NCBI GenBank assembly: GCA_963744065.1
Contig: CAVUSN010000017.1
Location: forward strand, 18,496 to 82,495
Direction: 5' to 3'
Length of the DNA stretch: 64,000 nt
From: an uncultured Actinomycetes bacterium
GTDB taxonomy: Bacteria > Actinomycetota > Thermoleophilia > Gaiellales > JAICJC01
Both the position numbers and the translations under genes were made by a program. Numbering within the stretch: the first letter of the stretch is position 1; each line of letters starts with the position of its first letter. This document shows, piece by piece, positions 859-50,646 of this stretch. Under the pieces are notes generated by a model, which did not search any database, had not been told where the DNA came from, and worked only from the letters and a program-made list of their open reading frames with translations.

Positions 859-904
859 GCCACTTGGCGGTGTCAGCGACTGCCACTTGGCGGATCTACA
901 GTCC
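859..904 (+). repeat. two phased 23-bp units of the GCCACTTGG repeat family (locus A)
   Basis: gccacttggcggtgtcagcgact (859-881) and gccacttggcggatctacagtcc (882-904). The array ends 4 nt before the ATG at 909. Confidence 0.85.
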
Positions 905-2740: not shown

Positions 2741-3004
2741 ATGCGCTTGACGACGCTGGTTGGAGTGGGCGCGCTGGCGGTGTTGGGCGCCCGCCGGTTG
2801 CAGGAGGTGGCCGAGCAGGAGGGCGTTCCGCTGGGTGACCTGGTGGCCGACCTGCCGCGCCGGCTGTCGGACGACCTGGCCACCCTGCCCGACGACCTGC
2901 GGATGGCGGTCAGAGAGGGCAAGCTGGCCGCCCAGCGGCAGATGCGGGCGCTGGACGAGCAGATGCGCTCGGCGGGCACCGGCAGCGACGCTTCGAGCGC
3001 CTAG
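2741..3004 (+). CDS. hypothetical small protein (N-terminal hydrophobic segment, charged tail)
   Basis: 87-aa ORF 5 nt after the previous gene. High GC3. No recognisable family. Confidence 0.4.
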   Translation: MRLTTLVGVGALAVLGARRLQEVAEQEGVPLGDLVADLPRRLSDDLATLPDDLRMAVREGKLAAQRQMRALDEQMRSAGTGSDASSA

Positions 3005-3315: not shown

Positions 3316-3345
3316 GGACCGAATTCTACCGGGCCGGGCGGGAGA

Positions 3346-3804
3346 TCACTGCTCGCCGCTGGCCGCGCCGCGGGCGGAGGCCACAGCGCGCTCCAGATCC
3401 GACAGCAGATCCCCCAGCGCGAACGGCTTTTCGTGGAACGCGAACATGCCCAGCGACTGGCCGCGACGGCGGGCCGGAGCGTCGGCCACCACCGAGGTCA
3501 GCACCACCGGGCAGCGGATGTGCTCGTCGCCCATCCGCTCGAGCAGTGCGAACCCATCCAGTACGGGCATCCGCACATCGACGATGGCGGCGTCGAACGG
3601 CTGCTCCTCGAGCAGTATCAGCGCCTGCTCGCCGTCGGCGGCCTCCGACACCGCGTAGCCCTCGGCCGCCAGCGTGTCGCACAGCGCCAGCCGCAGGTCG
3701 GGGTGGTCGTCCACCACCAGCACTCGCGGGGTGCCGGGACGCCCCGTGATCTCCGGATCGGTGTTCACCCGCATGCCATCGACCGCAGCTGTTGCGCGAT
3801 TCAT
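3346..3804 (-). CDS. single-domain response regulator (CheY-like receiver)
   Basis: RVLVVDDHPDLRLAL..FDAAIVDVRMPVLDGFALLERM..VVLTS..KPF has the receiver-domain acidic pocket, phospho-Asp and conserved Thr/Lys positions. No output domain and no adjacent kinase. Confidence 0.8.
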   Translation of the reverse strand: MNRATAAVDGMRVNTDPEITGRPGTPRVLVVDDHPDLRLALCDTLAAEGYAVSEAADGEQALILLEEQPFDAAIVDVRMPVLDGFALLERMGDEHIRCPVVLTSVVADAPARRRGQSLGMFAFHEKPFALGDLLSDLERAVASARGAASGEQ

Positions 3805-3865: not shown

Positions 3866-6444
3866 ATGCGCTCAGACGAGATCCGAAGCCGCTTCCTGGG
3901 CTATTTCACCGGCCGCGACCACCTGCGCCTGGACTCCGGCTCGCTGGTGCCGCCGGCCTGGGACACCAGCGTGCTCATCACCACCGCCGGCATGCAGCCG
4001 CTCAAGCAGTACTTCCTGGGCCTGGAGCCGCCGCCCCGGCCGCGCCTGACCAGCATTCAGAAGTGTTTTCGCACGGTGGACATCGACGAGGTGGGGCGGA
4101 CCGCCCGCCACCTGACCTTCTTCGAGATGCTGGGCAACTTCTCGATCGGCGACTACTTCAAGCCGCTGGCGGTGGCCTCGGCGTTCGAGCTCTCCGATCT
4201 CCGCCGACGGTTTCGGACTGGATCCGGACAAGATCTGGATCAGCGTCTACCGCGGCGACGAGCAGGTGCCGGCCGACGAGGAGGCGATCAGCCTGTGGCG
4301 CGAGATCGGCATCCCGGCCGAGCGGATCGTGCAGCTGGGCGGCGATAACTTCTGGCAGGCGGGCCCGGTGGGGCCGTGCGGGCCGTGTTCGGAGCTCTAC
4401 TACGACCGCGGCGAGCGGCTCGGCTGCGGCCGTCCGGAGTGCGCACCGGGCTGCGACTGCGACCGCTTCCTGGAGTTCTGGAATCTGGTCTTCATGCAGT
4501 ACAACATGCTGGACGGCGGCAGATTGGAGCCGCTGCCCCGGCCCAGCATCGACACCGGCTCGGGCGTCGAGCGGGTGGCCGCGCTGGTGCAGGGCACCGA
4601 CACGGTGTTCGAGACCGACATCTTCGCCGGCGTGATCGAGGCCGTGTGCGGCTGGAGCGGGGCGACCATGGGCGGCGACGATCCGGCCCAGGCCAAGTCG
4701 CTGCAAGGTGATCGCAGACCACGGCCGCGGCATGGCCTTCCTGGCCACCGACGGCGTCGAGCCCGACCGCGAGGGGCGCGGCTACGTGCTTCGCCGGATC
4801 ATCCGCCGGGCCGTCCTGCACGGCTCCCGGATCGGCCTGGATGAGCCATTCCTGGCCCGCCTGCACGGGAGGGTGGTGGAGCTGATGGGCGACGCCTATC
4901 CCGAGCTGCGGCGCGATGCCGACCGGGTGGCGGCGGTGCTCGAGGCCGAGGAGACGCGGTTTGCCGGCACGCTGGAGACCGGCGGCCGGATGCTGGACGA
5001 GATCCTGGCCCGGGGCGGCGACGTGTCGGCCGACGATGCCTTCCAGCTGCACGACACCTACGGCTTCCCGTTCGAGCTGACCGCCGAGATCGCCGCCGAG
5101 CGCGGCCGCTCGGTGGACGAGGCCGGCTTCGCCGAGCTGATGAACGAGCAGCGCCAGCGGGCGCGGGCCGCGGGCGCCTCTCGGCCGGCCGACGACGCCG
5201 GCGTTTTTGCCCGGGAGGCCGGCTTCACCAGCGAGTTCGTGGGCTACGAGTCGCTGGATGTGACCACCCAGGTGGGGGCGCTGCGGGAGGCCGGCGACGG
5301 CACGCTGTGGGTGAAGCTGCGCGAGTCGCCGTTCTACGCCCGCGGCGGCGGCCAGGTGGCCGACGCCGGCTGGATCGAGTCGGAGACCGCTCGTGCCGCC
5401 GTCGAGGATGTGATCCGGCTGGACGACGATCAACTGCTGGTCGTGCGCCCGGAGCGCGGAGAGCTGCACCAGGGTGATCGCGTGCGGGCCCGGGTGGACG
5501 CGGCCCGCCGCCGCCCGACCATGGCCAACCACACCGCCACCCATCTACTTCACCGCGCGCTGCGCGGGGTGCTGGGCGAGCACGTCACCCAGGCCGGCTC
5601 CTACGTCGGTCCGGACAAGCTGCGTTTCGACTTCCGCCACCCGGCGCCGCTGGAGCCCGAGCAGCTGGCCGCGGTCGAGCAGCGGGTGAACGACGACGTG
5701 GTCGCCAACCACCCCCTGCACACCTTCATCACCACCCAGGATCACGCCCGCCAGCTGGGGGCCATGATGCTCTTCGGGGAGAAGTACGGCGAGCACGTGA
5801 GGGTGGTCGAGGTGGACGGCATCTCCCGCGAGCTATGCGGCGGCACCCATGTGCGCTCGACGGCCGAGGTGGGCCCGTTCGTGGTGCTGCGCGAGACCAG
5901 TTCCTCGCAGGGCGTGCGCAGGATCGAGGCCATCTCCTCGGCGGTCGCCCTGGAGCACCTGCGAAGCCGAGCCCGGGATGCCGACCGGTTGGCTGCCGAG
6001 TTGGCCGAGCGCGACACCGAGCTGCGCCGGCTGCGTACCCGCGGCGGCGGCCTGGGGCCGGACTCGGCGAACGGCGAGGCCGAGCTTGTCGCCTCCGCGG
6101 TCGAGCTGGGCGGGGTGCAGGTGGTGGCGGCAGCCATCGAGGGCGTCGACTCCGAGTCGCTGCTTCGCACCTCCGACCGGCTGAAGGCGCGGCTGGGGCC
6201 GGCTGTGGTGGTGCTGGGCAGCTCGTCCGGCGGCAAGGTGCATCTGGTGGCCAGCGTCGATCAATCGGCCGTCGATCGCGGGCTGTCGGCCGTGGAGGTG
6301 ATCCGCCAGGTGGCGCCGATCGTGGGCGGCGGCGGCGGCGGCCGACCGACCATGGCCCGGGCCGGCGGCAGCGAACCGGCCGGGCTGGAACAGGCTGTGG
6401 CCCAGGCCAAGGCGTTGGTGCTGGAGAAGCTCGGCGCGGCATGA
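3866..6444 (+). CDS. alaS: alanine--tRNA ligase, interrupted by two frameshifts as assembled
   Basis: [39 protein letters not shown], then [31 protein letters not shown], then (SLR)[12 protein letters not shown].. to the C-terminal DHHA1-like end. The recognisable sequence moves between ORFs 3866.., 4266.. and 4708..6444 at ~4190-4200 and ~4704-4707. Confidence 0.9.
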
Positions 6445-6824
6445 GGGTGCTGGCACTGGACTACGGGCGTGCGCGCACGGGACTGGCCGTGTCGGACGCC
6501 ACCGGCACGCTGGCCCGCCCGGTGGGGGTCGTCACCCGCGTGCGCTCCAAGGCCGGCCGGGCTGAGCTCCTGCGCAGGATCCGCGAGTTGGAGCCAGAAC
6601 GTGTGGTGGTGGGGATGCCGATCACCCTGCGCGGCCAGCGCGGTCGTCAGGCGGGCGAGACCGAGGCCTTCGTGGCCGAGCTGCGGGCCGTCTGCCCGGT
6701 GCCGGTGGAGACGCTGGACGAGCGTTATACGACCGCCCTGGCCGTTCGTCTAAACGGCACCGATGATGATGCGGTGGCTGCCGCCCACCTGCTCAAGGGG
6801 TATCTGGAGCGATTCGCCGGCTGA
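6441..6824 (+). CDS. ruvX: Holliday-junction resolvase-like nuclease YqgF/RuvX
   Basis: [19 protein letters not shown]...VVVGMPITLRG..DERYTT. The ATG overlaps the alaS stop (ATGA). Confidence 0.85.
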   Translation: MRVLALDYGRARTGLAVSDATGTLARPVGVVTRVRSKAGRAELLRRIRELEPERVVVGMPITLRGQRGRQAGETEAFVAELRAVCPVPVETLDERYTTALAVRLNGTDDDAVAAAHLLKGYLERFAG

Positions 6825-6841
6825 TCCTCCTCGTCTGCCTG

Positions 6842-7798
6842 GTGGCCGCGGTCGTTGTCGTCGTGTCGGAGGCGCGCGGCATCTTCGCCTCCACCACGAA
6901 GCCCGGCGCCGACCCGCACGGCGCGGCGCTGAGCGTGGTCATCCCGCGCGGCACCGACGCGGCCGGGATCGCCGACATCCTGGCCACGGCCGGGGTGATC
7001 ACCGACGCCGGGCGCTTCCGGGACTACGCCAAGGCGCAGGGCGAGGGCTCGGACTTCCACGCCGGCACCTACGCGATCCGGGCCGGCACCGACTGGGACG
7101 CCATCATGTCCCGCCTGGATGCCGGGCCGGTGCCGATCGCGACGCACAAGCTGCTGATTCCGGAGGGCTTCCGAAACACCCAGATCGCGGCCCGGCTGCC
7201 GTCGGTCGGGATCAACCCGAGGGCGTGGACGAAGGCGGTCGAGCAGGCGGTGCCGCCGCCCGGCTTCGGCCACCACCAGAACATGGAGGGGTTCATGTTC
7301 CCGGCCACCTACTCGGTGACCAGGCACGAGCCGGCGACGCTGCTGGTCGCCCAGCAGCTGGCGGCCTTCCGCGACAACTTCGCCCAGGTCAGCCTGACCT
7401 ACGCGCGGTCGAAGAACTTGACGCCCTATGACGTGCTGATCATCGCCTCGATGATCGAGCGCGAGGCCCGCACGCCGGGCGATCGGGCCAAGGTGGCGGC
7501 GGTCATCTACAACCGGCTGGCGCGCGGCATGGCGCTTGGCATCGACGCCACCATCCTCTACCACCTGGGGTCATGGTCGGCGGTCATTCACCAGAGCGAC
7601 ATCGACAGCCTGGAGCCGTACAACACCCGCCGCCACACGGGGCTCCCGCCCACCCCGATCTGCGACCCCGGGCTGGCCTCGATCCAGGCGGCTGCACACC
7701 CGGCGCATGTCGGCTACCTGTACTACGTGGCCATCCCGGGCAAGGCGGCCATGTACTTCACCTCGAGCTACGCGGCGTTCAAGGCACATGGGGGGTGA
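6842..7798 (+). CDS. mltG: endolytic murein transglycosylase MltG (YceG-like)
   Basis: LLIPEGFRNTQIA..MEGFMFPATY..IIASMIEREA..VIYNRL..LGIDATILY..YNTRRHTGLPPTPICDPG. The TM helix (LILLVCLVAAVVVVV) starts upstream of the first GTG (6842) with no canonical start, so the N-terminus is uncertain. Confidence 0.85.
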   Translation: MAAVVVVVSEARGIFASTTKPGADPHGAALSVVIPRGTDAAGIADILATAGVITDAGRFRDYAKAQGEGSDFHAGTYAIRAGTDWDAIMSRLDAGPVPIATHKLLIPEGFRNTQIAARLPSVGINPRAWTKAVEQAVPPPGFGHHQNMEGFMFPATYSVTRHEPATLLVAQQLAAFRDNFAQVSLTYARSKNLTPYDVLIIASMIEREARTPGDRAKVAAVIYNRLARGMALGIDATILYHLGSWSAVIHQSDIDSLEPYNTRRHTGLPPTPICDPGLASIQAAAHPAHVGYLYYVAIPGKAAMYFTSSYAAFKAHGG

Positions 7799-8573
7799 GC
7801 GGCGGCGGGCGGCGGTGATCGGGCACCCGGTCGCGCACTCCCGTTCGCCGCACATGCACAACGCCGCCTACCGAGCGCTGGGCATGGACTGGAGCTACGA
7901 GGCGGTGGACGTGGCACGCGGCGACCTGGAGGCGTTCGTGCGCGGCATGGCGCAGGCCGGCTATGCCGGGATCAACGTCACCATTCCCCACAAGCGGGCC
8001 GTGCTGGGGCTGTGCGACGAGGTGGCGCCGGCCGCGGCCCGGGCCGGATCGGTGAACACGATCCTGGTCGGCGACGATGGCCGGCTGACCGGGCACTCGA
8101 CGGACGGGCGCGGGCTTGTGTGGGCGCTGGGCGACATCCAGCCAACGACTGCCCTGGTGCTCGGGTCGGGAGGTGCTGCGCGGGCTGCGGTGGAGACGCT
8201 GAAGGATGCTGGCTGGTCGGTGCGGGTCTCGGCCCGCAATCAGAACGCCGCGCGCGACCTCGACGCCGAGCGGGAGACCTGGCCGGCCCGACGGGCGGCG
8301 CCGCTGGTGGTCAACGCCACCCCCATCGGGCAGGTCTGGGACCCGGCGGACATGCCGATCGCTCCGTGGTTGATCGAGCTCGGGGCGACCGTCTGCGACC
8401 TGGCCTACCGCGGCGATGGCGACCCGACGCTGCTGTGTCTGGCGGCCGCAGCCCAGGGGGCCCATGTGGTGGACGGCCTGGAGGTGCTGATCGGCCAGGG
8501 CATCTACGCGTTCGAGCTGCTGACCGGCCGGCCGGCGCCGGTCGAGGTCATGCGATCGGCCGCCCGAGCCTGA
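7788..8573 (+). CDS. aroE: shikimate dehydrogenase
   Basis: AAVIGHPVAHSRSPHMHNAAY..GINVTIPHK..NTI..GHSTDG..LVLGSGGAARA..NATPIG. Start set at ATG 7788 within ORF 7536..8573. Confidence 0.85.
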   Translation: MGGERRRAAVIGHPVAHSRSPHMHNAAYRALGMDWSYEAVDVARGDLEAFVRGMAQAGYAGINVTIPHKRAVLGLCDEVAPAAARAGSVNTILVGDDGRLTGHSTDGRGLVWALGDIQPTTALVLGSGGAARAAVETLKDAGWSVRVSARNQNAARDLDAERETWPARRAAPLVVNATPIGQVWDPADMPIAPWLIELGATVCDLAYRGDGDPTLLCLAAAAQGAHVVDGLEVLIGQGIYAFELLTGRPAPVEVMRSAARA

Positions 8574-9708
8574 AGGGCCGCGAATCCGTGAACGGCGCCC
8601 GCCCCAGCATCAGATCGACCGCCAGCCGGGCGGAGCCGGCGCCGGTCAGGATGCCCTGGCTGCCGTGGCCGGCGCACACGGTTACGTGCTCGTCCATGCG
8701 GTCGATGTAGGGAAGGCCGTCGGGCGAGCTGGGGCGCAGGCCGCTCCAGGTGGCCACCACCTCGCGGGCGCGCACTCCCGGCACCAGCTGGCAGGCCCGC
8801 GCGGCGATCTGCTCCACAGCCGCCGCGCTCTCCGCTCCCTCGTGCAGGCCGGCCGACTTGGAGCCGCCCAGCAGCACACCGCCGCCGGCCGCCTGGTGGG
8901 CGATCAGGCGATGGGCGGGCCGGGCGCCGGTCTCGGGGATAACGCCGCTTCCCAGCTCCTCGACGGTGATCCCGCGCCCGGGCGGAGGGCCGATGGGGAG
9001 CTGCCAGCCGGCCTCGATCACGATCCGCCGGAGCAGCGGCGGGCCGGGCGCGGTGACGGCCAGCCAGCCGCGCACCGGTCGCACGGCCAGGTCGTGTCCC
9101 AGCCAGCCGGCCAGCCGGCGCGTCCAGGCGCCGGCGGCCAGCAGCACCTGCTCGGCGTGCAGGGTGCCGGTGTCGGTGACGACCGCGCAGCCGTCCTTGG
9201 CGGTCTCCAGCCGGCGCACCTCGACGGCGGTGCGGATCTCCGCCCCGGCGGCCGCTGCGGCGGCGGCCTGGGCGGCGGTCAGGGTGGGGGCGTGCACGCG
9301 CCAGCCGTCCCCCAGCAGCAGGCCGCCCAGCGCCAGGGCGGAAAGCTGCGGCTCGGCCTCGCGCACACGGTCGGCGTCCAGGAACTGCGCCTCCGGCGCC
9401 GTCGCGGTGGCCAGTTCGGCCACCTCCTCGGGGGCGGTGGCGATGACCAGCGTGCCGATGTCGCCCGCATCCAGGGCGAAGTGCGCCTCGGTCTGCTCGG
9501 ATAGCTCGCGGTAGGCCGCGGTGCTGGCCCGCCACAGGGGCTCCAGCTCCGGCTCTCGGGGGGGCGAGATGATGCCGTTTGAGGCGCCGGACGCGCCCGA
9601 GGCCAGGGCGCCGCGCTCCAAGAGCGTCACCTGCGCGCCGGCCCGAGCCAACTCGAGGGCGGCCGCGGTGCCCACCACGCCGCCCCCGATCACGATCACA
9701 TCCGGCAT
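8548..9708 (-). CDS. FAD-dependent oxidoreductase (DAO / glycine-oxidase family)
   Basis: N-terminal dinucleotide fold MPDVIVIGGGVVGTAAALELARAGAQVTLLER. The length and the C-terminal ..CAGHGSQGILTGAGSARL.. are typical of the DAO family. Confidence 0.75.
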   Translation of the reverse strand: MPDVIVIGGGVVGTAAALELARAGAQVTLLERGALASGASGASNGIISPPREPELEPLWRASTAAYRELSEQTEAHFALDAGDIGTLVIATAPEEVAELATATAPEAQFLDADRVREAEPQLSALALGGLLLGDGWRVHAPTLTAAQAAAAAAAGAEIRTAVEVRRLETAKDGCAVVTDTGTLHAEQVLLAAGAWTRRLAGWLGHDLAVRPVRGWLAVTAPGPPLLRRIVIEAGWQLPIGPPPGRGITVEELGSGVIPETGARPAHRLIAHQAAGGGVLLGGSKSAGLHEGAESAAAVEQIAARACQLVPGVRAREVVATWSGLRPSSPDGLPYIDRMDEHVTVCAGHGSQGILTGAGSARLAVDLMLGRAPFTDSRPFRLGRPIA

Positions 9709-9753
9709 GGCGGCACCCTACAGAACACCCGCTGTTGCGCCGATAGCCGGGAT

Positions 9754-10395
9754 ATGGAGACGGCGCTTCCACTGGCGGGGGTCGGGTTCGCCCTGGGTTG
9801 GCCGCTGGAGATGCTGATCCAGCGCTTCCCCAAGGGCGAGGGGAGCGCGCCTTCCAGCCGCCGCCGGTGGGTGGTGGCGGCGATCACCGCGGTGCTCTTC
9901 GCCGCGCTGGCCCTGCGCATCGGCTTTCACCCGCAGCTGGCGCCGGCGCTTCTGATCACGGCGCTGGTGGTGCCGGCCTCGGCCATCGACATCTCCCACC
10001 GGATCATCCCCAACGCCATCAACCTGCCGGGTGCGGTGGCCGTGTTCGCGGTGGCCGTGGCGGCCCAGCCGGATCGTTGGTGGGAGTTCCTGGCCGGCGG
10101 CCTGGGCGCGGCGCTCTTCCTCGGCCTGGCCTGGATCGTCTACCCAAAGGGCATGGGCGCCGGTGACGTCAAGCTGGCGCTGATGACCGGGCTGGGTGTG
10201 GGCAAGTACGCGCTGATCGCGCTCTTCGCCGGCTTCGTGCTGTCGCTGGTGCCGTCCATCGTGCTCCTGATGGCGCAGGGCGTGCGCGGCCGCAAGGCCA
10301 CCTTCCCCTTCGGGCCGTTCCTGGCCGCAGGTGCGGTGATCGCGCTGCTGTGGGGGCCGCAGCTGTGGTCGCTGTGGCTCACCGGCCACGCTTAG
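9754..10395 (+). CDS. prepilin peptidase (A24 family)
   Basis: Polytopic membrane protein with the two catalytic-Asp contexts (SAIDISHRIIPN and GMGAGDVKL) and FPFGPFL near the C-terminus. Confidence 0.8.
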   Translation: METALPLAGVGFALGWPLEMLIQRFPKGEGSAPSSRRRWVVAAITAVLFAALALRIGFHPQLAPALLITALVVPASAIDISHRIIPNAINLPGAVAVFAVAVAAQPDRWWEFLAGGLGAALFLGLAWIVYPKGMGAGDVKLALMTGLGVGKYALIALFAGFVLSLVPSIVLLMAQGVRGRKATFPFGPFLAAGAVIALLWGPQLWSLWLTGHA

Positions 10396-10429
10396 GGAAC
10401 CTTCCGGGTCCCTTGCGCGTCACAGGGAC

Positions 10430-10882
10430 ATGAAGCTCGCTGCAATCCTCGTGGTGGCCGGGGCGCTCGTGGTCGGCGCGTGGACGCTGGGTACGAGTTC
10501 ATCCAGCCATCGATCCACGCTGACCCCGACCGATAGACGGATTCAGGCGGTGGCGCTGCATATCGCGCGCGAGCTGGGCGACAGATCGCCGACCAGGATC
10601 GCTTGGGTGGCCAGCCGGCACCGGGCGGCCGAGCGGGTCGCCAGTGGCGACTGGGTGGATACGAACCAGCCCGTGTACCTGGTGGCGCTGCGCGGCCGGT
10701 TCATCGACCGCATGGCGTCGGTCCCGCCGGGCGGCAAGCCGCCCCGGGGGACGGTGCTGACCCTGGCCCTGGACCGCACGCATCTCAGCGTGCTGGATCT
10801 CGGGCTCTCGGGCCGCTGGCCCAGGCTGTCAGAGCTCGGGCCGGTGCATGCGATCACACAGGGGGCGGCCGCGACGCGCTGA
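10430..10882 (+). CDS. hypothetical secreted protein
   Basis: 150-aa ORF with an N-terminal signal/TM segment (MKLAAILVVAGALVVGAWTLG). No family recognised. Confidence 0.5.
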   Translation: MKLAAILVVAGALVVGAWTLGTSSSSHRSTLTPTDRRIQAVALHIARELGDRSPTRIAWVASRHRAAERVASGDWVDTNQPVYLVALRGRFIDRMASVPPGGKPPRGTVLTLALDRTHLSVLDLGLSGRWPRLSELGPVHAITQGAAATR

Positions 10883-11354
10883 CCCAGCGCCGCTGGGCGT
10901 GCCAGCGGTGGATCGTGCGCCGGCTGGGAGCGTGTGCCGAGCAGTTCTGGCCCGCCAGCAACTGGCCGACCGCGCCGACCCCGGCGTGCGGGCTCGCTCC
11001 ACCGGCGAACCGCCGCTCGAGTGCCGCGCGCAGCTCCGGCCAGGCGTAGCTGCCTGGCCGTCGCCGCGCAGGCTTCTCGCGCAGCGAGGCGATGTGGGCG
11101 GTCAGCGCCTTGCTGCGGCTGGCCGTCATGCAGCCATGGGCCGACCACAGCCGCTCCAGCGTGAGCACGAAGTCGCGCCCGCCGCGCATGGTCTGGAACT
11201 CGCGGCTCGCGTGCTCCGCGCACAGCCACACCTGGACGCCGTGGGTCAGCCGCAGCTGCTGTGTGCGCCCGCGGGTTCGGTCCACGCAGATCGCGCACAC
11301 CTGCTGCTTCGCCGGAACGCCCCGGGCCTTGTACAGCGTCGCCACGTATGCCAT
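10854..11354 (-). CDS. hypothetical Cys/His-containing protein (possible zinc-binding N-terminus)
   Basis: 166-aa ORF with VCAICVDRTRG..(19 aa)..WLCAEHAS. Its start lies 52 bp downstream (on its own strand) of repeat locus B. No family recognised. Confidence 0.45.
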   Translation of the reverse strand: MAYVATLYKARGVPAKQQVCAICVDRTRGRTQQLRLTHGVQVWLCAEHASREFQTMRGGRDFVLTLERLWSAHGCMTASRSKALTAHIASLREKPARRRPGSYAWPELRAALERRFAGGASPHAGVGAVGQLLAGQNCSAHAPSRRTIHRWHAQRRWVSASRPPPV

Positions 11355-11405
11355 GCGGGGAGTCTGGCCGGACGGGTGTCATGTGTGGGTCACGACCCGT
11401 GCCAA

Positions 11406-11557
11406 GATCGTCACACAACACAAGTGGCACTACCGAGCACCGACAAGTGGCGCACGGTGCTCAGCACATCGCGCAAGTGGCACTCGGCGGCATCGACAAG
11501 TGGCGAGCGAGGCTCGTTGTACCGCCCAAGTGACACTCAGTCGCACTGACAAGTGGC
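11406..11557 (-). repeat. GCCACTTG repeat family, locus B: six cores arranged as three 53-bp (23+30) higher-order units
   Basis: The plus strand shows caagtggc at 11421, 11444, 11474, 11497, 11550 and caagtgac at 11527, with spacings 23/30/23/30/23. On the minus strand the 23-nt units read gccacttgtcagtgcgactgagt / gccacttgtcgatgccgccgagt / gccacttgtcggtgctcggtagt. Confidence 0.9.
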
Positions 11558-11634
11558 GGGACCACGGCGAGATATCACAGCTCGGCGTCGCGTGCGCTTC
11601 TGGTGTGCGGCGAACTGAAGAGGAGCGGCGCCGG

Positions 11635-12222
11635 CTACGAGTGTGAGCCGCGGCTCGCCACGAGACCGTTCGCCACCTCGCTGGCCACGGCGACGGCGTG
11701 GTCCGTGCCGAAGGTGGCCGCGGGGCCGATTACCACCACCTGGTAGCGGCCGACTAGGAAGGTGACGCTGGTAGCCGGCGGGCCCGCCATCAATGCACCC
11801 TGGATCGCCGGCGTGACCGCGACCGGGCGGTTGTCGGTGCAGTCTGTACACACCGAGCTGAGCTCCCGGATGAAGGACTGGTCGACGACGCCGGGCGGCC
11901 CTTTTTCCTCGACGACGCGCAGCACACCGAAGGGCGACGACTGGCCGTACTGGAGGGTCACAACCGGCTGGTCCGCCGGCGAATGTGCCGGGTCGGAGAC
12001 GAACACGTACGACGGCGTTCCTGCATCGGCGGGCACGGCCGCCGGGAAGGGGAGGGTCGCCGGGGAGGGCCGTTTGTCGACCGCGACCGTCTTCATCCCG
12101 TCCACGTGGGACGCCGACCACAGGAACGGTTCGCCCGCGGTCGGCGGTGCCGCCTGTCGACGTCCCTCGGCGACTAGCACAATAACGAGGCACGCTGCCA
12201 GCGCACTGCCCAGCCATCTCAT
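11635..12222 (-). CDS. hypothetical secreted protein
   Basis: 195-aa ORF with a signal-like N-terminus (MRWLGSALAACLVIVLVAEG). No family recognised. Confidence 0.5.
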   Translation of the reverse strand: MRWLGSALAACLVIVLVAEGRRQAAPPTAGEPFLWSASHVDGMKTVAVDKRPSPATLPFPAAVPADAGTPSYVFVSDPAHSPADQPVVTLQYGQSSPFGVLRVVEEKGPPGVVDQSFIRELSSVCTDCTDNRPVAVTPAIQGALMAGPPATSVTFLVGRYQVVVIGPAATFGTDHAVAVASEVANGLVASRGSHS

Positions 12223-12269
12223 GTTCAGTGGACGCCTGCCGTTGTCCGAAAGTTTCCCGCCGCAGCGCG

Positions 12270-12869
12270 TTACAGCGCCGCAAACCGGAACCGCGGCGGC
12301 CTCGTCCCGACCGCGATCAGGTGCACGTAGCTCCCATCAGCCGCAGCGGTGGCGAGGTCGAGCCGGTAGGGCGTCGAGTCGGGCAGTACGAACACGAAGC
12401 GGCTGTCGAGGCTCAGCGTGGCATCCAGGTTGCGAGTGACCGGGATCGTCGGGTGCACCCGGTGCAAGCGGACAAGGAGCACGCCGCCGGTCCAGAACTG
12501 CCCCACGTAGAAGATGCAGAAGGCGTGCTTTGGGCAGGAGTAGCGGCTGGCTCGATACTCAGCCAACAGGCGATCCTTCGTCGCCATATCCAGCACCGGC
12601 CGGTTGGGCTCGGTAAGACCGGTGGACGCCAGCCGGACTGCATGCGACGACCCGCCGCCAAAGCACCCGCTGACCACGAGTCCGACGAGGGTGCCAAGCG
12701 CGAGGTGCTGAGAGGCGCGTCGCACCCTCGTAGGACGATTCCACCGGGCCGCAAGTTCGCCGCGGGTCCGCGCCGCGCGGCGCGACACGCCCTCCCGCGT
12801 GCGCGCCGCGCGACGCAGACCGCCCCCTCCGGCGATCTGCCCGTTGCCTACCCCGGCTAACGTCGGCAC
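12270..12869 (-). CDS. hypothetical lipoprotein candidate
   Basis: Contains a lipobox-like LVGLVVSGC preceded by a basic stretch. The true start is probably internal or non-ATG. No family recognised. Confidence 0.4.
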   Translation of the reverse strand: MPTLAGVGNGQIAGGGGLRRAARTREGVSRRAARTRGELAARWNRPTRVRRASQHLALGTLVGLVVSGCFGGGSSHAVRLASTGLTEPNRPVLDMATKDRLLAEYRASRYSCPKHAFCIFYVGQFWTGGVLLVRLHRVHPTIPVTRNLDATLSLDSRFVFVLPDSTPYRLDLATAAADGSYVHLIAVGTRPPRFRFAAL

Positions 12870-12967: not shown

Positions 12968-13432
12968 ATGGCCGGCGTGCTCGCCGATCCGCGCCTGCAC
13001 GAGTTCATCGGCGGCGGGCCCGACTCGCCAGCCGAGTTGTGCGAGCGGTACCGCCGGTGGGTCGCCGGCCCCGGCGACGAGCGCACCGAGTGGCTGAACT
13101 GGATCGTGCGCACGCGGCAAGATGGAGCCGCCGCCGGCGCGGTGCAGGCGACTGTGGAAACCGCGCCGGACGGCAGCCGCGGCGCTGACGTGGCGTGGGT
13201 GATCGGCGTCGCCTGGCAGGGACGTGGCTACGCCTCTGAGGCCGCCAGCGCGCTCGTCGGGTGGCTGCGAGGCCGCGGTATCGACGACATCAGCGCGAAC
13301 ATCCACCCCGACCATCACGCCTCCGCTGCCGTAGCCCGCCGGGCCGGCCTGCGACCGACAGACGAGCAGCACGAGGGCGAGACGGTGTGGCGATCGGGCG
13401 GACAGCCGCCCCGCCGCCGTCCCCCTCGGTAG
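12968..13432 (+). CDS. GNAT-family N-acetyltransferase (RimJ/RimL-like)
   Basis: ..WVIGVAWQGRGYASEAASALVGWL..I.ANIHPDHHASAAVARRAGL.. is the acetyl-CoA-binding motif A region. The conserved N-terminus (TERLELTSLTVDDADE) extends upstream of the first in-frame ATG. The only upstream ATG (12885) is out of frame, so a start-proximal indel is possible. Confidence 0.7.
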   Translation: MAGVLADPRLHEFIGGGPDSPAELCERYRRWVAGPGDERTEWLNWIVRTRQDGAAAGAVQATVETAPDGSRGADVAWVIGVAWQGRGYASEAASALVGWLRGRGIDDISANIHPDHHASAAVARRAGLRPTDEQHEGETVWRSGGQPPRRRPPR

Positions 13433-13442
13433 GCTCTGGGCC

Positions 13443-14627
13443 ATGTCGCTCAGCTACGTCACCGCCGGGGAATCCCACGGCCCCGGCCTGACCGTCGTCA
13501 TCTCCGGCCTGCCGGCCGGCCTTGAGCTCGACCACGAGCTGATCCGGGCAGACTTGGCCCGCCGCCAGGCGGGCTACGGCCGCAGCCCTCGCCAGAAGCT
13601 GGAGACCGACGACGTGGAGCCGCGCGGCGGCCTGCGCCATGGGCGCACGCTGGGCAGCCCGCTTGCATTCTTCATCCAGAACCGAGACCACCAGAACTGG
13701 CTGGCCCCGATGAGCGCCTGGCCGGTGCGCGAAAGCGAGCTCGAGCAGTACGGCTGGCGCGGCCGACCTGTGTCGCTGCCGCGGCCCGGGCACGCCGACC
13801 TGGCCGGCGTCCTCAAGTACGGCCACGACGACGTGCGAAACGTGCTGGAGCGGGCCAGCGCCCGCGAGACGGCGGCCCGGGTGGCGGCCGGCGCGGTCGC
13901 CAAGGCGCTCATCCGCACGATCGGGATCGAGGTGCGAAGCCACGTGCTGCAGGTCGGCTCGGTGCGGGCGACGCCGCCGGCCTGGCTCTCGGTGGACGAT
14001 TTCGAGCGTGCCGAGTCCTCGCAGGTGCGCTGCATCGACCCCGCCGCCGAGGCCGCCATGATCGCCGAGATCGAGGCCGCCAAGGCCGAGCGCGACACGC
14101 TGGGCGGGGTCACCGAGGTGCGCGCCTTCGGCGTGCCGCCCGGGCTCGGATCGCACGTCTCCGCCGACCGCCGGCTGGACGGCCGGATCGCCGCCGCCAT
14201 GCTCTCCATCCAGTCCGCCAAGGGGGTCGAGATCGGTGACGCGATCGCCTCGGCCGCCCGCCGCGGATCCAGCGTGCACGACGAGATCTTCCACTCCGAC
14301 GAGCTCGGCTACCACCGCCAGTCCGACCGCGCCGGCGGCCTGGAGGGCGGCATGACCAACGGCGCTGACCTCGTCGTGCGCACCATCTGGAAGCCGCTGC
14401 CGACGCTCATGCGGCCGCTGCGAAGCGTGGAGTTGGGTAGCCACGAGCCGCGCGAGGCGCATGTCGAGCGAAGCGACGTGACGGTGCTGCCGGCGGCCGC
14501 GGTGGTGGCCGAGGCGGCACTGGCGTTCGAGCTGGGCCGGGCGGCGCTCGAGAAGTTCGGGGGCGACGCGCTGGTCGATTTCACAGCCGCCCACGCCGCC
14601 TACATGGACCGCATCAGCTCGGCATGA
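13443..14627 (+). CDS. aroC: chorismate synthase
   Basis: MSLSYVTAGESHGPGLTVVISGLPAG..RPGHADLAG..RASARETAARVAAGAVAK..SIQSAKGVEIG. Confidence 0.95.
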   Translation: MSLSYVTAGESHGPGLTVVISGLPAGLELDHELIRADLARRQAGYGRSPRQKLETDDVEPRGGLRHGRTLGSPLAFFIQNRDHQNWLAPMSAWPVRESELEQYGWRGRPVSLPRPGHADLAGVLKYGHDDVRNVLERASARETAARVAAGAVAKALIRTIGIEVRSHVLQVGSVRATPPAWLSVDDFERAESSQVRCIDPAAEAAMIAEIEAAKAERDTLGGVTEVRAFGVPPGLGSHVSADRRLDGRIAAAMLSIQSAKGVEIGDAIASAARRGSSVHDEIFHSDELGYHRQSDRAGGLEGGMTNGADLVVRTIWKPLPTLMRPLRSVELGSHEPREAHVERSDVTVLPAAAVVAEAALAFELGRAALEKFGGDALVDFTAAHAAYMDRISSA

Positions 14628-16120
14628 TCCCCGGGCCGTACCGAAACGTTGCCCTAATCGGCTTCATGGGGGCCGGCAAGACCACCGCCGGCACCCGCCT
14701 GGCCGAGCGCCTGGGCTGGCGGTTCGTGGATGCAGACTCCGTCATCGAGCGCGACCAGGGCGAGTCGATCACGGCCATCTTTGACCGCCTGGGCGAGTCC
14801 GGTTTCCGCGAGATCGAGGAGCGGGTGGTGGCCGACCTGCTGGCCGAGACCAATGCGGTGATCGCCCTGGGCGGTGGCGCGGTGGGCTCGCCGGTGACCC
14901 GCGAGCGGCTGCGCGAGGGCTCCTACACGGTGCTGCTGGACGTGTCCCCGCAGGTGGCCTGGCGGCGGGTGGAGGCCGAGGCCGGCGACCGCCCGCTGGC
15001 CCGCGAGGCGGAGGCCTTCCGAGCGCTGTACGAGTCCCGGCGGGCCACCTACGCCGCGGCCGCCGACGCGCTGGTGGACGCCGACGAGGTGCACGGCGAC
15101 GAGCCGATGCTGGTGCCGCTGGCTCGCACCGGCGCGCTGTTCGAGCTGCCGCGGCTGATCGGCGCTCGGCGGGCTGCGCTGATCGCCGATCGCGACGTGC
15201 TGCGGGTGGTTGGAAAGCCGTTCGACCCCTTCGTCACCGTCCGCCTGCCGGCCGGCGAGGCGGCAAAGACGGTGGCTGTGGCCCGCCAGGCCTGGCGCCG
15301 GCTGGCCGACCTGGGGCTGGAACGGGGCGACGTGGTGGTGGCCCTGGGCGGCGGCGCCGCCACCGATCTGGGCGGCTTCGTGGCCGCCACCTACCTGCGT
15401 GGTGTGGCCTGGATCGCCGCGCCCACGTCGCTCCTGGCGGCGGTGGACGCCGGCATCGGCGGCAAGACCGGGATCGACCTGCCGCAGGCCAAGAACTTCA
15501 TCGGCGCCTTCCATCAGCCCGAGTGGGTGGTGGCCGACCCCGGCGTGCTGGACACGCTGCCGCTGCGCGAGTGGGCGTGCGGCTTCGCCGAGGTGGTCAA
15601 GGCCGGCCTGCTGGCCGGCGGCCGGCTGTGGAAGCTGGTGCGCGAGTGGCAGCCCGGCCGCGGCACGCCCGAGCAGCGGCTGGAGCTGATCCGCCGCAGC
15701 GCCGCCTACAAGGCCCGCATGGTGGCAGCCGACCCGCTCGAGCAGGGCATGCGGGCGGCGCTCAACCTCGGCCACACGATCGGCCATGCGGTGGAGACGG
15801 CGGGCGGCCACAAGGCCTACGCGCACGGCGAGGCCGTGGCCATCGGCCTGCTGCCGGCGCTGTGGCTGTCGGCCCAGGCCTGCGGGCTGGATCCGGCGCT
15901 GGAGAATGAGGTGCGCGAGCTCTTGGAGCATCACGGCCTGCCCACCGTGGCCCGCGGCGTCAGCGCCGAGACGGTGCTGGAGGCCATGACCCGCGACAAG
16001 AAGGTGCGCGACGGCCGCATCCGCTTCTCGCTGCTCGAGGCTGTCGGCCAGCCGGTGATCGGCATCGACCCCGGCGACGAGCTGGTGCGCGAGGCGGTGT
16101 CGCGCGCGATCGCCGCCTGA
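14624..16120 (+). CDS. aroB: bifunctional shikimate kinase / 3-dehydroquinate synthase (AroK-AroB fusion)
   Basis: The N-terminus IGFMGAGKTTAGTRLAERLGWRFVDAD..FRE.E is the AroK P-loop. From ~aa 170: VVALGGGAATDLGGFVAATYLRGV..PTSLLAAVDAGIGGKTGIDL..KNFIGAFHQP..NLGHTIGHA is AroB. It is a single uninterrupted ORF. Confidence 0.9.
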   Translation: MIPGPYRNVALIGFMGAGKTTAGTRLAERLGWRFVDADSVIERDQGESITAIFDRLGESGFREIEERVVADLLAETNAVIALGGGAVGSPVTRERLREGSYTVLLDVSPQVAWRRVEAEAGDRPLAREAEAFRALYESRRATYAAAADALVDADEVHGDEPMLVPLARTGALFELPRLIGARRAALIADRDVLRVVGKPFDPFVTVRLPAGEAAKTVAVARQAWRRLADLGLERGDVVVALGGGAATDLGGFVAATYLRGVAWIAAPTSLLAAVDAGIGGKTGIDLPQAKNFIGAFHQPEWVVADPGVLDTLPLREWACGFAEVVKAGLLAGGRLWKLVREWQPGRGTPEQRLELIRRSAAYKARMVAADPLEQGMRAALNLGHTIGHAVETAGGHKAYAHGEAVAIGLLPALWLSAQACGLDPALENEVRELLEHHGLPTVARGVSAETVLEAMTRDKKVRDGRIRFSLLEAVGQPVIGIDPGDELVREAVSRAIAA

Positions 16121-16345
16121 CCCTGCCCGCCCCGGGCGGCGGACGTCTGCGATCCGCCGCCCGGGCCGCGGGCTCTGCCTGACTCCCTAGGGTCAGGACA
16201 GCGGACCCGGAAAGCTCGGTCCGTGCGCCGCAGTCTCCTCCTCGAAGATTGAGCTGATGGTGGGTTTTCGGTAACGATCGTGTGACGATCTGCGCCGCCC
16301 GCCACCCGGACTTTCACGGTTCGCCGGTCGAGTAACCTCTCGCAA

Positions 16346-16774
16346 ATGCAGGTGGCAGTCCTGAACGGTGTCAACCTGAATATGCTCGGGCAGCGTGACC
16401 CCGACGTGTACGGCGACTTCACCCTGGACCAGCTCGAGACCCAGATCTATGCCTGGGCATCGGATCTGGCCATGGGCGTGCGCTGCACGCACACCAACTC
16501 CGAGGGCGAGTACGTGGACATGATCCACGAGGCCTGCGGCGACGCCGACGGCATGATCGTGAACCCCGGCGCCTGGACGCACTACAGCTACGCCATCCGC
16601 GACGCGCTGGAGATCTTTACGGGGCCGGTGATCGAGGTGCACCTGTCTGACATCGGGTCGCGGGAGCAGTGGCGCCGGCACTCGGTGATCGCCGACGTGG
16701 TCAGCCACCGCATCACCGGCAGCGGACCTGAGGGCTACCACGACGCCCTCAAGCGGCTGGTGGAGGCCGGGTGA
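16346..16774 (+). CDS. aroQ: type II 3-dehydroquinate dehydratase
   Basis: VLNGVNLNMLGQRDPDVYG..HTNSEGEYVD.IH..NPGAWTHYSYAIRDAL..PVIEVHLSD. Confidence 0.95.
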   Translation: MQVAVLNGVNLNMLGQRDPDVYGDFTLDQLETQIYAWASDLAMGVRCTHTNSEGEYVDMIHEACGDADGMIVNPGAWTHYSYAIRDALEIFTGPVIEVHLSDIGSREQWRRHSVIADVVSHRITGSGPEGYHDALKRLVEAG

Positions 16775-17850
16775 GCTACCCGGAGCGGATCCAGGGCGTG
16801 CGTGAGGCGCTGGAGGGGGCCGGCGCGGAGGCGCTGATCGTCTCCAATCTGGTCAACGTGCGCTACCTGACCGGGTTTGCCGGCTCAAACGCGGTGGTGA
16901 TCGTGGCGGGCGACGCCGCGACGTTCCTGACCGACTTCCGGTACGTCACCGCCAGCCAGCCGATCGGCGCCTTCATGCAGGTCGAGATGGCCGATCGGGA
17001 GGCGCTTCGGTATACGGCGGAGCACCTGTCCGAGCTGACCGGCGGGGCGGCCCGGGTGGGCTTCGAGGCCGCCCATCTGAGCGTTGCTGCACACGCCGTG
17101 CTGGCGGACGCCAACCCGGACGTCGAGCTCGTTTCCACCCGCGGTGCGGTCGAGCGCCTGCGGGTGATCAAGGAGCCCGCCGAGCAGGAGGCGGTGCGCC
17201 GCTCGGCTGCCCTGCTCGAGGGCGTCTATCGGACGCTGGCGGAGGAGGGCCTGGAGGGCCGCCGGGAGGTGGATGTGGCCTGGCGCGTGCGCGAGCTGCT
17301 GCACGAGGCGGGCGCGCAGGGGCTGTCGTTCGAGACCATCGTCGCCTCGCATGAGCGCGGCGCGCTGCCGCACGCGGTGCCGACCGAGGCGGTGATCGGC
17401 TCCGGCACGCTGGTCACCATCGATCTCGGCTGCATGCTGGACGGCTACGCATCGGACTGCACGCGCACATTTGCGGTCGGCCAGCCGGACTCCGAGCTGC
17501 GGGCGATCTACGACGTGTGCCTGGAGGCGCAGCTGGCGGCCATGGCGGCCATCCGCCCGGGCCTCGAGGGAGCCGACGCCGACGCGGTCGCCCGCGACAT
17601 CATCTCCGGCGCCGGCTACGGCGATCGCTTCGGGCATGGGCTGGGCCACGGGGTCGGGCTGGACATCCATGAGGAGCCGCGGCTCTCGGCGTCCTCGTCC
17701 GCAACCCTGGAGACCGGCATGGTCGTCACAGTGGAGCCGGGCATCTACCTGCCCGACCACGGTGGGGTGCGGATCGAGGACCTGGTGATCGTGACGGCCG
17801 ACGGCTGCGAGCGCCTGACCATGTACCCCAAAGAGCTCACAATCCTGTGA
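16771..17850 (+). CDS. Xaa-Pro aminopeptidase (M24B family)
   Basis: Creatinase-like N-domain followed by ..VTIDLGCMLDGYASDCTRTF..GHGLGHGVGLDIHE..VVTVEPGIY..GGVRIED. Conserved position between aroQ and efp. Confidence 0.85.
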   Translation: MSYPERIQGVREALEGAGAEALIVSNLVNVRYLTGFAGSNAVVIVAGDAATFLTDFRYVTASQPIGAFMQVEMADREALRYTAEHLSELTGGAARVGFEAAHLSVAAHAVLADANPDVELVSTRGAVERLRVIKEPAEQEAVRRSAALLEGVYRTLAEEGLEGRREVDVAWRVRELLHEAGAQGLSFETIVASHERGALPHAVPTEAVIGSGTLVTIDLGCMLDGYASDCTRTFAVGQPDSELRAIYDVCLEAQLAAMAAIRPGLEGADADAVARDIISGAGYGDRFGHGLGHGVGLDIHEEPRLSASSSATLETGMVVTVEPGIYLPDHGGVRIEDLVIVTADGCERLTMYPKELTIL

Positions 17851-17870
17851 CCTCTCTAGACTGACCCAGG

Positions 17871-18428
17871 ATGATCTCCACAAACGAGTTCAAAAACGGC
17901 ATGCACATCGCGCTGGACGGGATCGTCTACCGGATCGTCGATTTCCAGCACGTCAAGCCCGGCAAGGGCGGAGCCTTCGTGCGCACCAAGCTGAAGGGCC
18001 TGGAGTCCGGCTCGGTGATCGACCGCACTTTCCGGGCGGGCGAGAAGATGCAGCGCGTGCACACCGAGGTGACCAACGTCAGCTACCTGTACAACGACGG
18101 CTCCGACGTGGTGCTGATGGACGCTGAAAGCTTCGAGCAGATCCACCTGCCGCTGGCCAGCCTGGCCGACGAGCTGCGCTTCATGAAGGAGAACGACACC
18201 GTCCAGCTGCTGCTGGTGGACGGCAAGCCGTCCTCGCTGCAGCTGCCGGCGGCGGTCGAGCTGGAGGTGACAGAGACCGAGCCTGGAGTCAAGGGCGACA
18301 CCGTCTCCAACGTCACCAAGCCGGCCACCCTGGAGACGGGCGCGGTGGTGCAGGTGCCGCTGTTCGTGGAGCCCGGCGAGCGGATCCGGGTGGACACCCG
18401 CGAGGCCCGCTACATCTCGCGGGCGTGA
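17871..18428 (+). CDS. efp: elongation factor P
   Basis: MISTNEFKNGMHI..DGIVYRIVDFQHVKPGKGGAFVRTKLK..KPATLETGAVVQVPLFV. Confidence 0.95.
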   Translation: MISTNEFKNGMHIALDGIVYRIVDFQHVKPGKGGAFVRTKLKGLESGSVIDRTFRAGEKMQRVHTEVTNVSYLYNDGSDVVLMDAESFEQIHLPLASLADELRFMKENDTVQLLLVDGKPSSLQLPAAVELEVTETEPGVKGDTVSNVTKPATLETGAVVQVPLFVEPGERIRVDTREARYISRA

Positions 18429-18435
18429 GCCGCCC

Positions 18436-21584: not shown

Positions 21585-21606
21585 TCCGGCGTCGGCTCCG
21601 GCGCAG

Positions 21607-24127: not shown

Positions 24128-24140
24128 GGCCCCCGCCCGG

Positions 24141-27162: not shown

Positions 27163-27254
27163 GCCACTTGGCCGTGCATGCGAGTGCCACTTGACGGTGC
27201 GCATGAGTGCCACTTGGCGGCGGACACGAGTGCCACTTGGCCGTGCCGGCGAGA
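27163..27254 (+). repeat. GCCACTTGG repeat family, locus C: four perfectly phased 23-bp tandem units
   Basis: gccacttggccgtgcatgcgagt / gccacttgacggtgcgcatgagt / gccacttggcggcggacacgagt / gccacttggccgtgccggcgaga, starting at 27163, 27186, 27209 and 27232. The array ends 142 nt upstream of the pyrG start. Confidence 0.95.
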
Positions 27255-34016: not shown

Positions 34017-34853
34017 ATGGTCGGCGTGGGGTCCGGCGTCGAGGTGCGGGCGCTGCGGCTGGACGATCTGGACTGGCTGGCGCAGCTGCACAACGACGCG
34101 TTCGCAGACCACGTCGTGCCGGCCAGCCTGGACGCCGCCGCGCTGGGCGCGTATCTGGAGGAGACGGATGTGTCGCCCGAGTTGTCGCGGGTGGCGTTCG
34201 TGCACGGACAGCCGGCCAGCTTCTGCCTGGCGGCGATGCGTGGCGAGCGGGCCAGCGTCCGGGGTGAGGGCACCGGCCGGCGGTTCCGGCGCCGCGGGCT
34301 GGGCGGTCTGGTGCTGGATGAGACGCTTGCGGCGATGACCGACGCCGGAGCCGGCGAGGTCGTGCTGGAGTCGGTTGCCAGCAACATTGCTGCACTCGAG
34401 CTCTACCGCGGGCGCGGGTTTCGCAAGCTGCGCCGGCTGCTGGGCTGGCGGCTGGGCCGCGCGGGCGACGGCAGCGAACTGGCGGAGATCCCGGTAGACG
34501 ACGCCGTTGATCGGTTGGAGGCCTGGGGCTGGCCGGATCCGCCGTGGCAGCTGGCGCCGCAGACGCTGCGCCGGCTGCGCGCCTTTGCCCTCGGCGAGGC
34601 GGCGGTGGCGCTGGGAAAGCCGCGCCACGAACGGTTCTGGCTGTACGGCTTCGGCGTCGACCCAGCTGTGCGCCGGCGGGGGGTGGGCACGTCGCTTCTG
34701 CGTGCGCTGCCGGGGCGGGTCGGCGTGCCGGCGCTGGTGCCTGAGACCTGGCGGGGCGCCGTCGCCTTCCTGGATTCGGCCGGCGGAGAGCGCGAGGGCT
34801 ACTCGCAGTGGGAGCTGGTGCGGCCACTGCCAGTTGGCGGTGCTCGCGAGTGA
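34017..34853 (+). CDS. GNAT-family acetyltransferase (two-lobed, ~278 aa)
   Basis: VRALRLDDLDWLAQLHNDAF..GTGRRFRRRGLGGLVL..A...YRGRGF, with a second RRRGVGTSLL motif in the C-terminal half. The last codons and the TGA overlap repeat locus D. Confidence 0.7.
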   Translation: MVGVGSGVEVRALRLDDLDWLAQLHNDAFADHVVPASLDAAALGAYLEETDVSPELSRVAFVHGQPASFCLAAMRGERASVRGEGTGRRFRRRGLGGLVLDETLAAMTDAGAGEVVLESVASNIAALELYRGRGFRKLRRLLGWRLGRAGDGSELAEIPVDDAVDRLEAWGWPDPPWQLAPQTLRRLRAFALGEAAVALGKPRHERFWLYGFGVDPAVRRRGVGTSLLRALPGRVGVPALVPETWRGAVAFLDSAGGEREGYSQWELVRPLPVGGARE

Positions 34854-34874
34854 CACTTGGCGGCCGCCGCCCAG
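34829..34874 (+). repeat. GCCACTTGG repeat family, locus D: two phased 23-bp units
   Basis: gccagttggcggtgctcgcgagt (34829-34851) and gacacttggcggccgccgcccag (34852-34874). Unit 1 ends with the family's cgagt signature. Confidence 0.75.
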
Positions 34875-50600: not shown

Positions 50601-50646
50601 GCCACTTGGCCGTTGCAGCGGTGGCCAGTTGGCCGTTCTGACGATG
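50601..50646 (+). repeat. GCCACTTGG repeat family, locus E: two phased 23-bp units
   Basis: gccacttggccgttgcagcggtg (50601-50623) and gccagttggccgttctgacgatg (50624-50646), located between two convergent gene ends. Confidence 0.8.

Follow-up and report, generated by a model that had tools for sequence, protein, structure and literature searches.

The 64,000-nucleotide stretch of DNA analyzed here (the window) carries an array of short repeats between two genes of the minus strand, as the initial annotation had placed it. A gene for a 195-aa secreted or lipoprotein-like protein lies upstream of the array, and a gene for a 166-aa protein lies downstream (Table 1). The array comprises six 8-base cores on the minus strand (11421-11557), five of which read GCCACTTG and one GTCACTTG. 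The cores start at 11557, 11534 (the GTCACTTG copy), 11504, 11481, 11451 and 11428, giving spacings of 23/30/23/30/23 nt, and both the spacings and the number of cores agree with those annotated originally. Likewise, the 23-nt sub-units follow GCCACTTGTCnnTGCnnnnn(G/T)AGT and end, as had been noted, in GAGT, GAGT and TAGT. The annotation had also organized the array as three copies of a 53-bp super-unit. The spacing behind that description is real, but because the 30-nt sub-units are alike in the core only, and because the corresponding linkers in relatives range from 28 to 32 nt, three pairs of cores fit the array better than three 53-bp copies. Thus, the elementary unit is two cores exactly 23 bp apart rather than a 53-bp block.

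Table 1. Features of the array locus and sites of the same repeat family in the window.
Feature	Coordinates	Strand	Remarks
Sister site, two units 23 nt apart	859..904	+	Ends ~20 nt 5' of a NifU-like/MnmA fusion gene, which starts at 910
166-aa gene	10854..11354	-	C20, C23, C45 and H48 invariant; pI 11.6; coding-type GC3
CAGACT, -10-like hexamer	11361..11366	-	6 nt before ATG; family consensus CAcACT, with A2 and T6 kept
GTGACCCACACATGACAC, conserved gene-specific block	11376..11393	-	Family consensus CGTcACCCACaCGtgACA; sole GTSACCCAC in the window
Pair 3 (promoter-proximal)	11421..11451	-	Cores at 11451-11444 and 11428-11421
Pair 2	11474..11504	-	GCCACTTG (11504-11497) and GCCACTTG (11481-11474), 23 nt apart; 30-nt linker to pair 1
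Pair 1 (distal)	11527..11557	-	GCCACTTG (11557-11550) and GTCACTTG (11534-11527), 23 nt apart
195-aa secreted or lipoprotein-like gene	11635..12222	-	Upstream of the array; coding-type GC3
Sister array, four units, strict 23-nt spacing	27163..27254	+	~150 nt upstream of pyrG
Sister site, two units (GCCAGTTG, GACACTTG)	34829..34874	+	Overlaps the stop codon of 34017-34853
Sister site, two units (GCCACTTG, GCCAGTTG)	50601..50646	+	Between convergent ORFs 50258-50584 (+) and 50677-51546 (-)

These repeats greatly exceed chance expectation. The window holds 12 copies of the core GCCACTTG, where 2.1 would be expected and none of 100 shuffles had more than 6, and relaxed-core pairs at exactly 23 nt occur eight times versus none in 100 first-order Markov simulations. 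A TRF run on the window reports the sister array at 27163-27246 with a period of 23 and does not report the 11421-11557 array, a silence that we attribute to the restriction of conservation to the cores. When the motif strings were sought in the full-text literature, primers were the only matches.

Pairs or arrays of the same unit, with the consensus AGTGCCACTTGGCGGTG followed by six variable nucleotides, are present at four other places in the window. The site that overlaps the end of 34017-34853 has a phosphopentomutase-like gene (34974) ~120 nt downstream of it, and the site between convergent ORFs is therefore upstream of no gene. The gene at 910-2327 appears to be a fusion of a NifU/IscU-like N-terminus to MnmA (tRNA 2-thiouridylase). 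Two stretches (250-850 and 49725-50260) have lower G+C (about 0.66-0.68) and no ORF with coding-type GC3; these may be decayed genes or non-coding DNA, and the sites at 859 and 50601 adjoin them.

The initial annotation described the surroundings as a variable insert in an aro cluster, and a related strain (locus L211) bears this out. The two are 96-97% identical over window positions 4293-10968 and 13402-24680, and L211 lacks the intervening 10968-12743 (1.8 kb), a segment that takes in the array and the 195-aa gene, along with the 5' three-quarters of the 166-aa gene and a portion of the ORF that comes next. In its place (L211 6689-8251) are an ECF sigma gene and a gene for a 243-aa protein, preceded at ~6575-6690 by a remnant that codes for the C-terminal ~40 residues of the 166-aa protein. 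The same 2.29-Mb contig carries, at locus L001, a paralogue that is 78% identical and is accompanied by an eight-core array. Since the array and the greater part of the gene are gone from a 97%-identical strain, the window copy of both is dispensable. A 33-nt unit in two tandem copies (12769-12834; TRF score 86) adjoins the right breakpoint of the strain-variable segment and is also found in L211, as is an apparent shikimate kinase/3-dehydroquinate synthase fusion (AroK-AroB; 14624-16120). An extra DUF4232 gene precedes aroC in L211.

A core pair conserved upstream of one gene family

Homologues of the 166-aa gene were collected at loci from long assemblies (L001, L002, L125-127 and L208-210) and at 80 metagenome loci, and 72 unique sequences from distinct loci were used to build an upstream consensus. 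Neighboring genes vary between these loci, and the upstream layout is common to them: gcGcCAcTTGgCGGTg - N6 - gtGtCAtTTGgtGTT ... CGTcACCCACaCGtgACA ... CAcACT - N6-10 - ATG. Both cores, the GTCACCCAC block and the CACACT hexamer are in register with the ATG in this consensus, and in most of the 72 loci the core pair resides at about -74 and -97 nt from the start codon. This register is fixed among proteins that are only 55-60% identical. A PWM scan locates the pair in the 350 nt upstream of the gene at 47 of the 72 loci, and degenerate pairs are visible in most of the others. Only four pairs lie outside the homologue upstream regions in the 358 kb scanned, that is, in the other ~340 kb of the loci.

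This co-occurrence at a fixed distance, beside unrelated neighbors, supports a link that had been offered as speculation when the array was first annotated, namely that the 166-aa gene encodes the cognate binder of the array or is its regulated target. Given the upstream architecture shared by the homologue loci, the three-pair array of the window is an expanded form of a conserved two-core element. Specifically, pair 3 is the counterpart of the two cores that are kept throughout the gene family.

Between the proximal core and the gene, the GTGACCCACACATGACAC block is a putative promoter or second operator element. No consensus sigma-70 site was found upstream of the 166-aa gene, and the location of the -10-like hexamer just before the ATG suggests a leaderless or near-leaderless transcript. 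The GTGAC...GTGAC block was also considered as a CRP-like site, an idea rejected because its arrangement is unsuitable and differs between loci. At locus L180 (1390-1510), a second gene, which encodes a 137-aa protein of unknown function and lies 3.6 kb from the family gene, shares the upstream layout of the family: it is preceded by a core pair, then a GACA-rich block, and then a TAAGCT -10-like hexamer. This gene may be a second regulon member.

Comparison of close relatives reveals which parts of the array are held constant. The window spacing of 23/30/23/30/23 nt corresponds to 23/28/23/31/23 nt in L208 (83% protein identity to the window), 23/32/23 nt in L209 (77%) and 23/31/23/31/23/24/23 nt in L001 (78%). 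Within pairs the distance is always 23 nt, linkers span 28-32 nt, and in all four the distance between the last core and the ATG is 74-75 nt (74 in the window). Between the window and L208, 46 of 48 core positions (96%) are identical, compared with 50 of 90 spacer positions (56%; Fisher p=2e-7), and the gene itself is 78% identical at the nucleotide level. This pattern indicates purifying selection on the cores and on the 23-bp phase, and not on the linkers. Arrays have also expanded independently: there are eight cores in L001, nine 23-nt units in L176-type loci, and in L205 a 77-nt unit, consisting of the pair plus the promoter block, is repeated three times.

The L208 locus also retains an orthologue of the 195-aa gene directly upstream of its array and gene, and these three parts reside beside different neighbors than in the window. 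This arrangement hints that the three may travel together as a module.

The 166-aa protein and a possible mode of binding

The 166-aa protein belongs to a large and unannotated family. More than 687 matches were found in 90% clusters, and 333 representative clusters remain at 50% identity (1.84 billion proteins). One homologue (P0024) and the AroC homologues carry Gaiellales labels, which assign the window to that order, and an exact look-up of the window proteins returned no record. The CAIC...LCAEH motif, annotated initially as a possible zinc-binding N-terminus, is present, and its four putative ligands form a C-x2-C...C-x2-H pattern (C20, C23, C45 and H48) that is invariant in an alignment of 42 homologues. 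Other invariant motifs are RTRGRT, RGGRDFV, PGSYAWP and PSRRT..RW.AQRRW. Members of the family are strongly basic (median pI 11.5; net charge about +20) and share a conserved, basic, Arg/Trp-rich C-terminal helix. The AlphaFold2 model of the 166-aa protein (pLDDT 82) has a beta-hairpin where the Cys/His ligands lie and helices after it, and the C-terminal 70 residues are modeled as a three-to-four-helix unit (pLDDT 74). The gene stands alone, with no conserved neighbors among the homologue loci.

Searches with the protein against Pfam, NCBIfam, PADLOC and PHROGs yielded no match, profile searches against the PDB gave chance matches only, and Foldseek returned nothing below E=0.6 for either the full model or the C-terminal domain. 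The sole DNA-binding match of the C-terminal model, to the DNA-binding domain of StbA, is not significant (E=10). The DNA-binding fold that the initial annotation had suggested looking for in a predicted structure did not emerge as a significant fold or profile match. A few family members give weak matches to transposase-type HTH domains, with DUF4817 the best (E=1e-4) and HTH_32, HTH_48 (Mos1) and HTH_23 also represented. No fused domains were found in long family members, and a scan of viral contigs found no member of the family. The zinc ligands, the pI of 11.5 and the helical C-terminus are compatible with DNA binding, and on these sequence characteristics the protein is a candidate zinc-ribbon and helical DNA-binding protein.

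Several characteristics of the array point to a role at the level of DNA rather than RNA. In one clade (L170/L176/L182/L188/L198) the array keeps its place upstream of the gene but is inverted. The core is a 10-bp quasi-palindrome, GCCA-NT-TGGC, which is perfect in L169 (GCCAATTGGC) and is extended to GCGCCA-CT-TGGCGC in L115 and L109. Moreover, the array folds no better than shuffled sequences (z=-1.5 for the minus strand and +0.5 for the plus strand), and a search of the window with Rfam 15 covariance models gave zero matches at the gathering score. The inverted clade, the quasi-palindromic core and the lack of RNA structure or an Rfam family therefore point to protein binding on double-stranded DNA as the probable function of the array.

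The feature is real and functional. Because about 70 further genomes carry this motif pair in front of the gene, the array is most likely a control site of the 166-aa gene, and perhaps a docking site of the gene's own protein. In its specific form, a proposal to which we give roughly even confidence, the array is a cis-regulatory protein-binding region for the 166-aa gene, and the binder would most likely be the gene's own product acting in autoregulation. Taking as given the observed geometry, conservation and position of the repeats and their near-exclusive association with the gene family, we infer a function in DNA, the 166-aa protein as the binder, and the sign of regulation.

We hypothesize that the array would serve as an operator or upstream activating array. 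The elementary operator would be two GCCA-NT-TGGC cores (here GCCACTTG) exactly 23 bp apart, the proximal of which starts 74 nt before the start codon, followed toward the gene by the GTGACCCAC block and the -10-like CAGACT. This pair would have been multiplied to three pairs in the window lineage. The small, very basic product, with its predicted zinc ribbon (C-x2-C...C-x2-H) followed by helices, would bind as one dimer per core in the simplest arrangement, cooperatively across the 23-bp pair, and so regulate its own gene. The sites at 859, 27163, 34829 and 50601 might then be additional targets or titration sites. Self-binding is our best guess because the pair is nearly confined to the upstream region of this gene, the protein is very basic, with a predicted zinc ribbon and a conserved Arg/Trp-rich C-terminal helix, and the gene stands alone.

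Some observations run counter to this proposal. No DNA-binding domain matches the protein significantly in sequence or structure, and association alone fits a binder and a target of another regulator alike. The 50601 site, between convergent genes, has no obvious role for a classical operator. Related 23-nt arrays occur in L036, L109 and L115 with no homologue of the gene within the 8-kb pieces examined, and a 97%-identical strain lacks this gene and array, though it keeps the paralogue at L001.

Alternative explanations and known systems

A scan of the genome collection with the loose pattern CCACTTG-N16-23 x3 matched at least 120 loci, and nearly all of those listed are unrelated short-period repeats; the relevant loci among the matches listed are L036, L109, L111 and L115. 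The L036 array (2950-3400; Miltoncostaeaceae MAG OY969782.1) has ~20 tandem 23-nt units, in which TCCACTTGGTCCTnnGCCCGAGG alternates with ...GGCCGTGGnCGCGAGG, and shares the core and period of the window family. The genes on its two sides are convergent, with a nuclease-like gene ahead of the array and a GC-rich hairpin behind it. The arrays at L109 2200-2520, L115 1930-2130 and L111 2010-2080, from other Actinomycetota MAGs (L111 from Gaiellales), have 3-11 units with a period of 23-24 nt and an extended palindromic core, GCGCCA(C/T/A)TTGGCGC. The L115 array is upstream of a P-loop kinase-like gene, and the L111 array is upstream of a PLP decarboxylase-like gene. Tandem ~31-nt repeats with the hairpin GCCACTTG(T/G)TAGTGGCGAG at L031, L070 and L075 (Polaromonas, Comamonadaceae and Rhodoferax MAGs) also fitted the pattern but look like a different, hairpin-forming repeat family.

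It is possible, if somewhat unlikely, that the repeats are sites of a different regulator or nucleoid-associated protein conserved in Thermoleophilia, with the 166-aa gene only its best-conserved target and the 166-aa protein a non-binder. The same-core arrays of 23-24-nt period that lack a nearby homologue (L036, L109, L115 and L111) agree with such an explanation, as do the lack of a demonstrable DNA-binding domain in the 166-aa protein and the unrelated genes that adjoin the four further sites in the window. In addition, the second conserved block (GTGACCCAC...) could be the real operator of the 166-aa protein. However, near-confinement of the pair to the upstream region of one gene in 358 kb would be unusual for a global regulator, and an extremely basic protein with a zinc ribbon and a helical C-terminus, encoded alone, resembles a typical autoregulator. 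A broader proposal, which we regard as improbable, is that the family represents a new class of sequence-specific DNA-binding protein, in which a zinc ribbon is joined to a divergent helical domain that lacks recognizable relatives, and which assembles cooperatively on 23-bp-phased arrays of 2 to ~20 units scattered through Thermoleophilia chromosomes. Beyond a role as simple operators, these arrays would provide sites for titration of the protein or for nucleoprotein assembly, fixing the protein's level and organizing or insulating neighboring genes.

Multiple ~22-bp transposase-binding sites are characteristic of Tn7- and Mu-type ends, which the 22-23-bp tandem units resemble, and the arrays might be ends or remnants of such an element, with the 166-aa protein a transposase-derived HTH accessory and the whole module able to move. 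The transposase-type nature of the weak HTH matches, the difference between 97%-identical strains in whether they carry the gene, array and 195-aa gene, and the variety of contexts in which the module appears are consistent with this idea. We nevertheless rate it low because no transposase or second end was seen: neither a transposase, an integrase nor a second inverted end is nearby, and neither the window nor the 20-kb flanks examined at five homologue loci contain a transposase or a partner end. Furthermore, the pair is in fixed register with the start codon at about 70 loci, the 3' gene remnant in L211 fits deletion or replacement rather than precise excision, and the family was not found in viral contigs. 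Even less probable is that the array acts as an RNA, whether as a decoy or antitoxin of a type III toxin-antitoxin-like system, as a protein-sponging sRNA, or as a 5'UTR element. In ToxIN, tandem repeats are directly upstream of a ~170-aa gene, and the locus shares this layout with ToxIN, CptIN and TenpIN; most arrays also have the same orientation as their flanking genes, and a hairpin follows the L036 array. Against these likenesses stand the lack of any match to ToxN, AbiQ, CptN or TenpN, or to any toxin, in PADLOC and Pfam, the inverted orientation in one clade, the restriction of conservation to cores of 8-15 nt rather than whole units with linkers of variable length, folding that is no better than that of shuffles, the lack of an Rfam family, and the position of the -10-like element downstream of the array near the ATG. 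Finally, a neutral minisatellite or a REP-like selfish intergenic repeat without specific function, an alternative that the initial annotation had raised, is scarcely credible. Although core number varies among relatives (2, 4, 6, 8 and 9) and copies are dispersed through the intergenic regions of the window, the explanation is largely refuted because cores are conserved while spacers diverge. Start-codon register is also fixed across divergent proteins, and the units are not near-identical, unlike those of young minisatellites. REP/BIME palindromes were likewise rejected: there is no stable hairpin, the MFE is no better than that of shuffles, and only a 10-bp quasi-palindrome is present.

The autoregulatory proposal finds its closest analogies in systems wherein a small protein binds phased repeats beside its own gene, although nothing indicates that the array and its gene belong to any of these systems. 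What was found at the 72 loci, a conserved site 5' of the gene in start-codon register (-74/-97), is as expected for the operator of an autoregulated, sequence-specific transcription factor. NrdR is a regulator of ~150-160 aa with an N-terminal zinc ribbon, whose two boxes are at fixed helical phase upstream of its targets. The 166-aa family is similar in combining a small zinc-ribbon protein with two phased upstream boxes, but it lacks the ATP-cone (Pfam and NCBIfam) and any sequence similarity, its main target would be its own gene, and its boxes are 23 bp apart and multiplied into arrays. In the plasmid systems ParR-parC and StbA-stbDR, short direct repeats immediately 5' of the gene for the binder serve as both operator and assembly site. 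By contrast, the window locus is chromosomal, has no partner ATPase, and is built from a 23-bp unit with a quasi-palindromic core; no homology of the 166-aa family to the partition proteins ParR or StbA was demonstrable. Iterons are 19-23-bp direct repeats with conserved cores that lie beside a Rep gene and function in autoregulation and titration, whereas the window array is not part of a recognizable replicon, and neither Rep nor winged-helix proteins were matched.

The RecA-NDp/PafBC promoter motif of Actinobacteria, tTGTCRgtg-N8-TAnnnT, was also considered. The 23-nt units TTGTCAGTG, TTGTCGATG and TTGTCGGTG match or nearly match the upstream half of this motif. This reading was rejected because the -10 half is missing: 8 nt downstream, the sequence is TGCCAC or TGTCAC rather than TAnnnT. 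The sister arrays and most homologue loci instead read TTGGCGGTG, and it is CCA-N-TTGG rather than GTCGGTG that is conserved across lineages.

Implications for gene control in Gaiellales

Gaiellales and related Thermoleophilia are abundant but barely cultured soil Actinomycetota whose gene regulation is almost unstudied. Analysis of this array now pairs an unannotated, conserved protein family (333 clusters at 50% identity) with a precise motif, two GCCA-NT-TGGC cores that are 23 bp apart, and defines the conserved promoter architecture of the 166-aa gene family. The array represents a familiar regulatory design in a new form, and is best described as the paired-core operator array of an uncharacterized, probably DNA-binding, Gaiellales zinc-ribbon family. 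If the 166-aa protein does not bind these sites, the motif would still mark the regulon of another regulator in Gaiellales or Thermoleophilia. If it does bind, then the family would constitute a new group of DNA-binding proteins with an operator that repeatedly expands into arrays.
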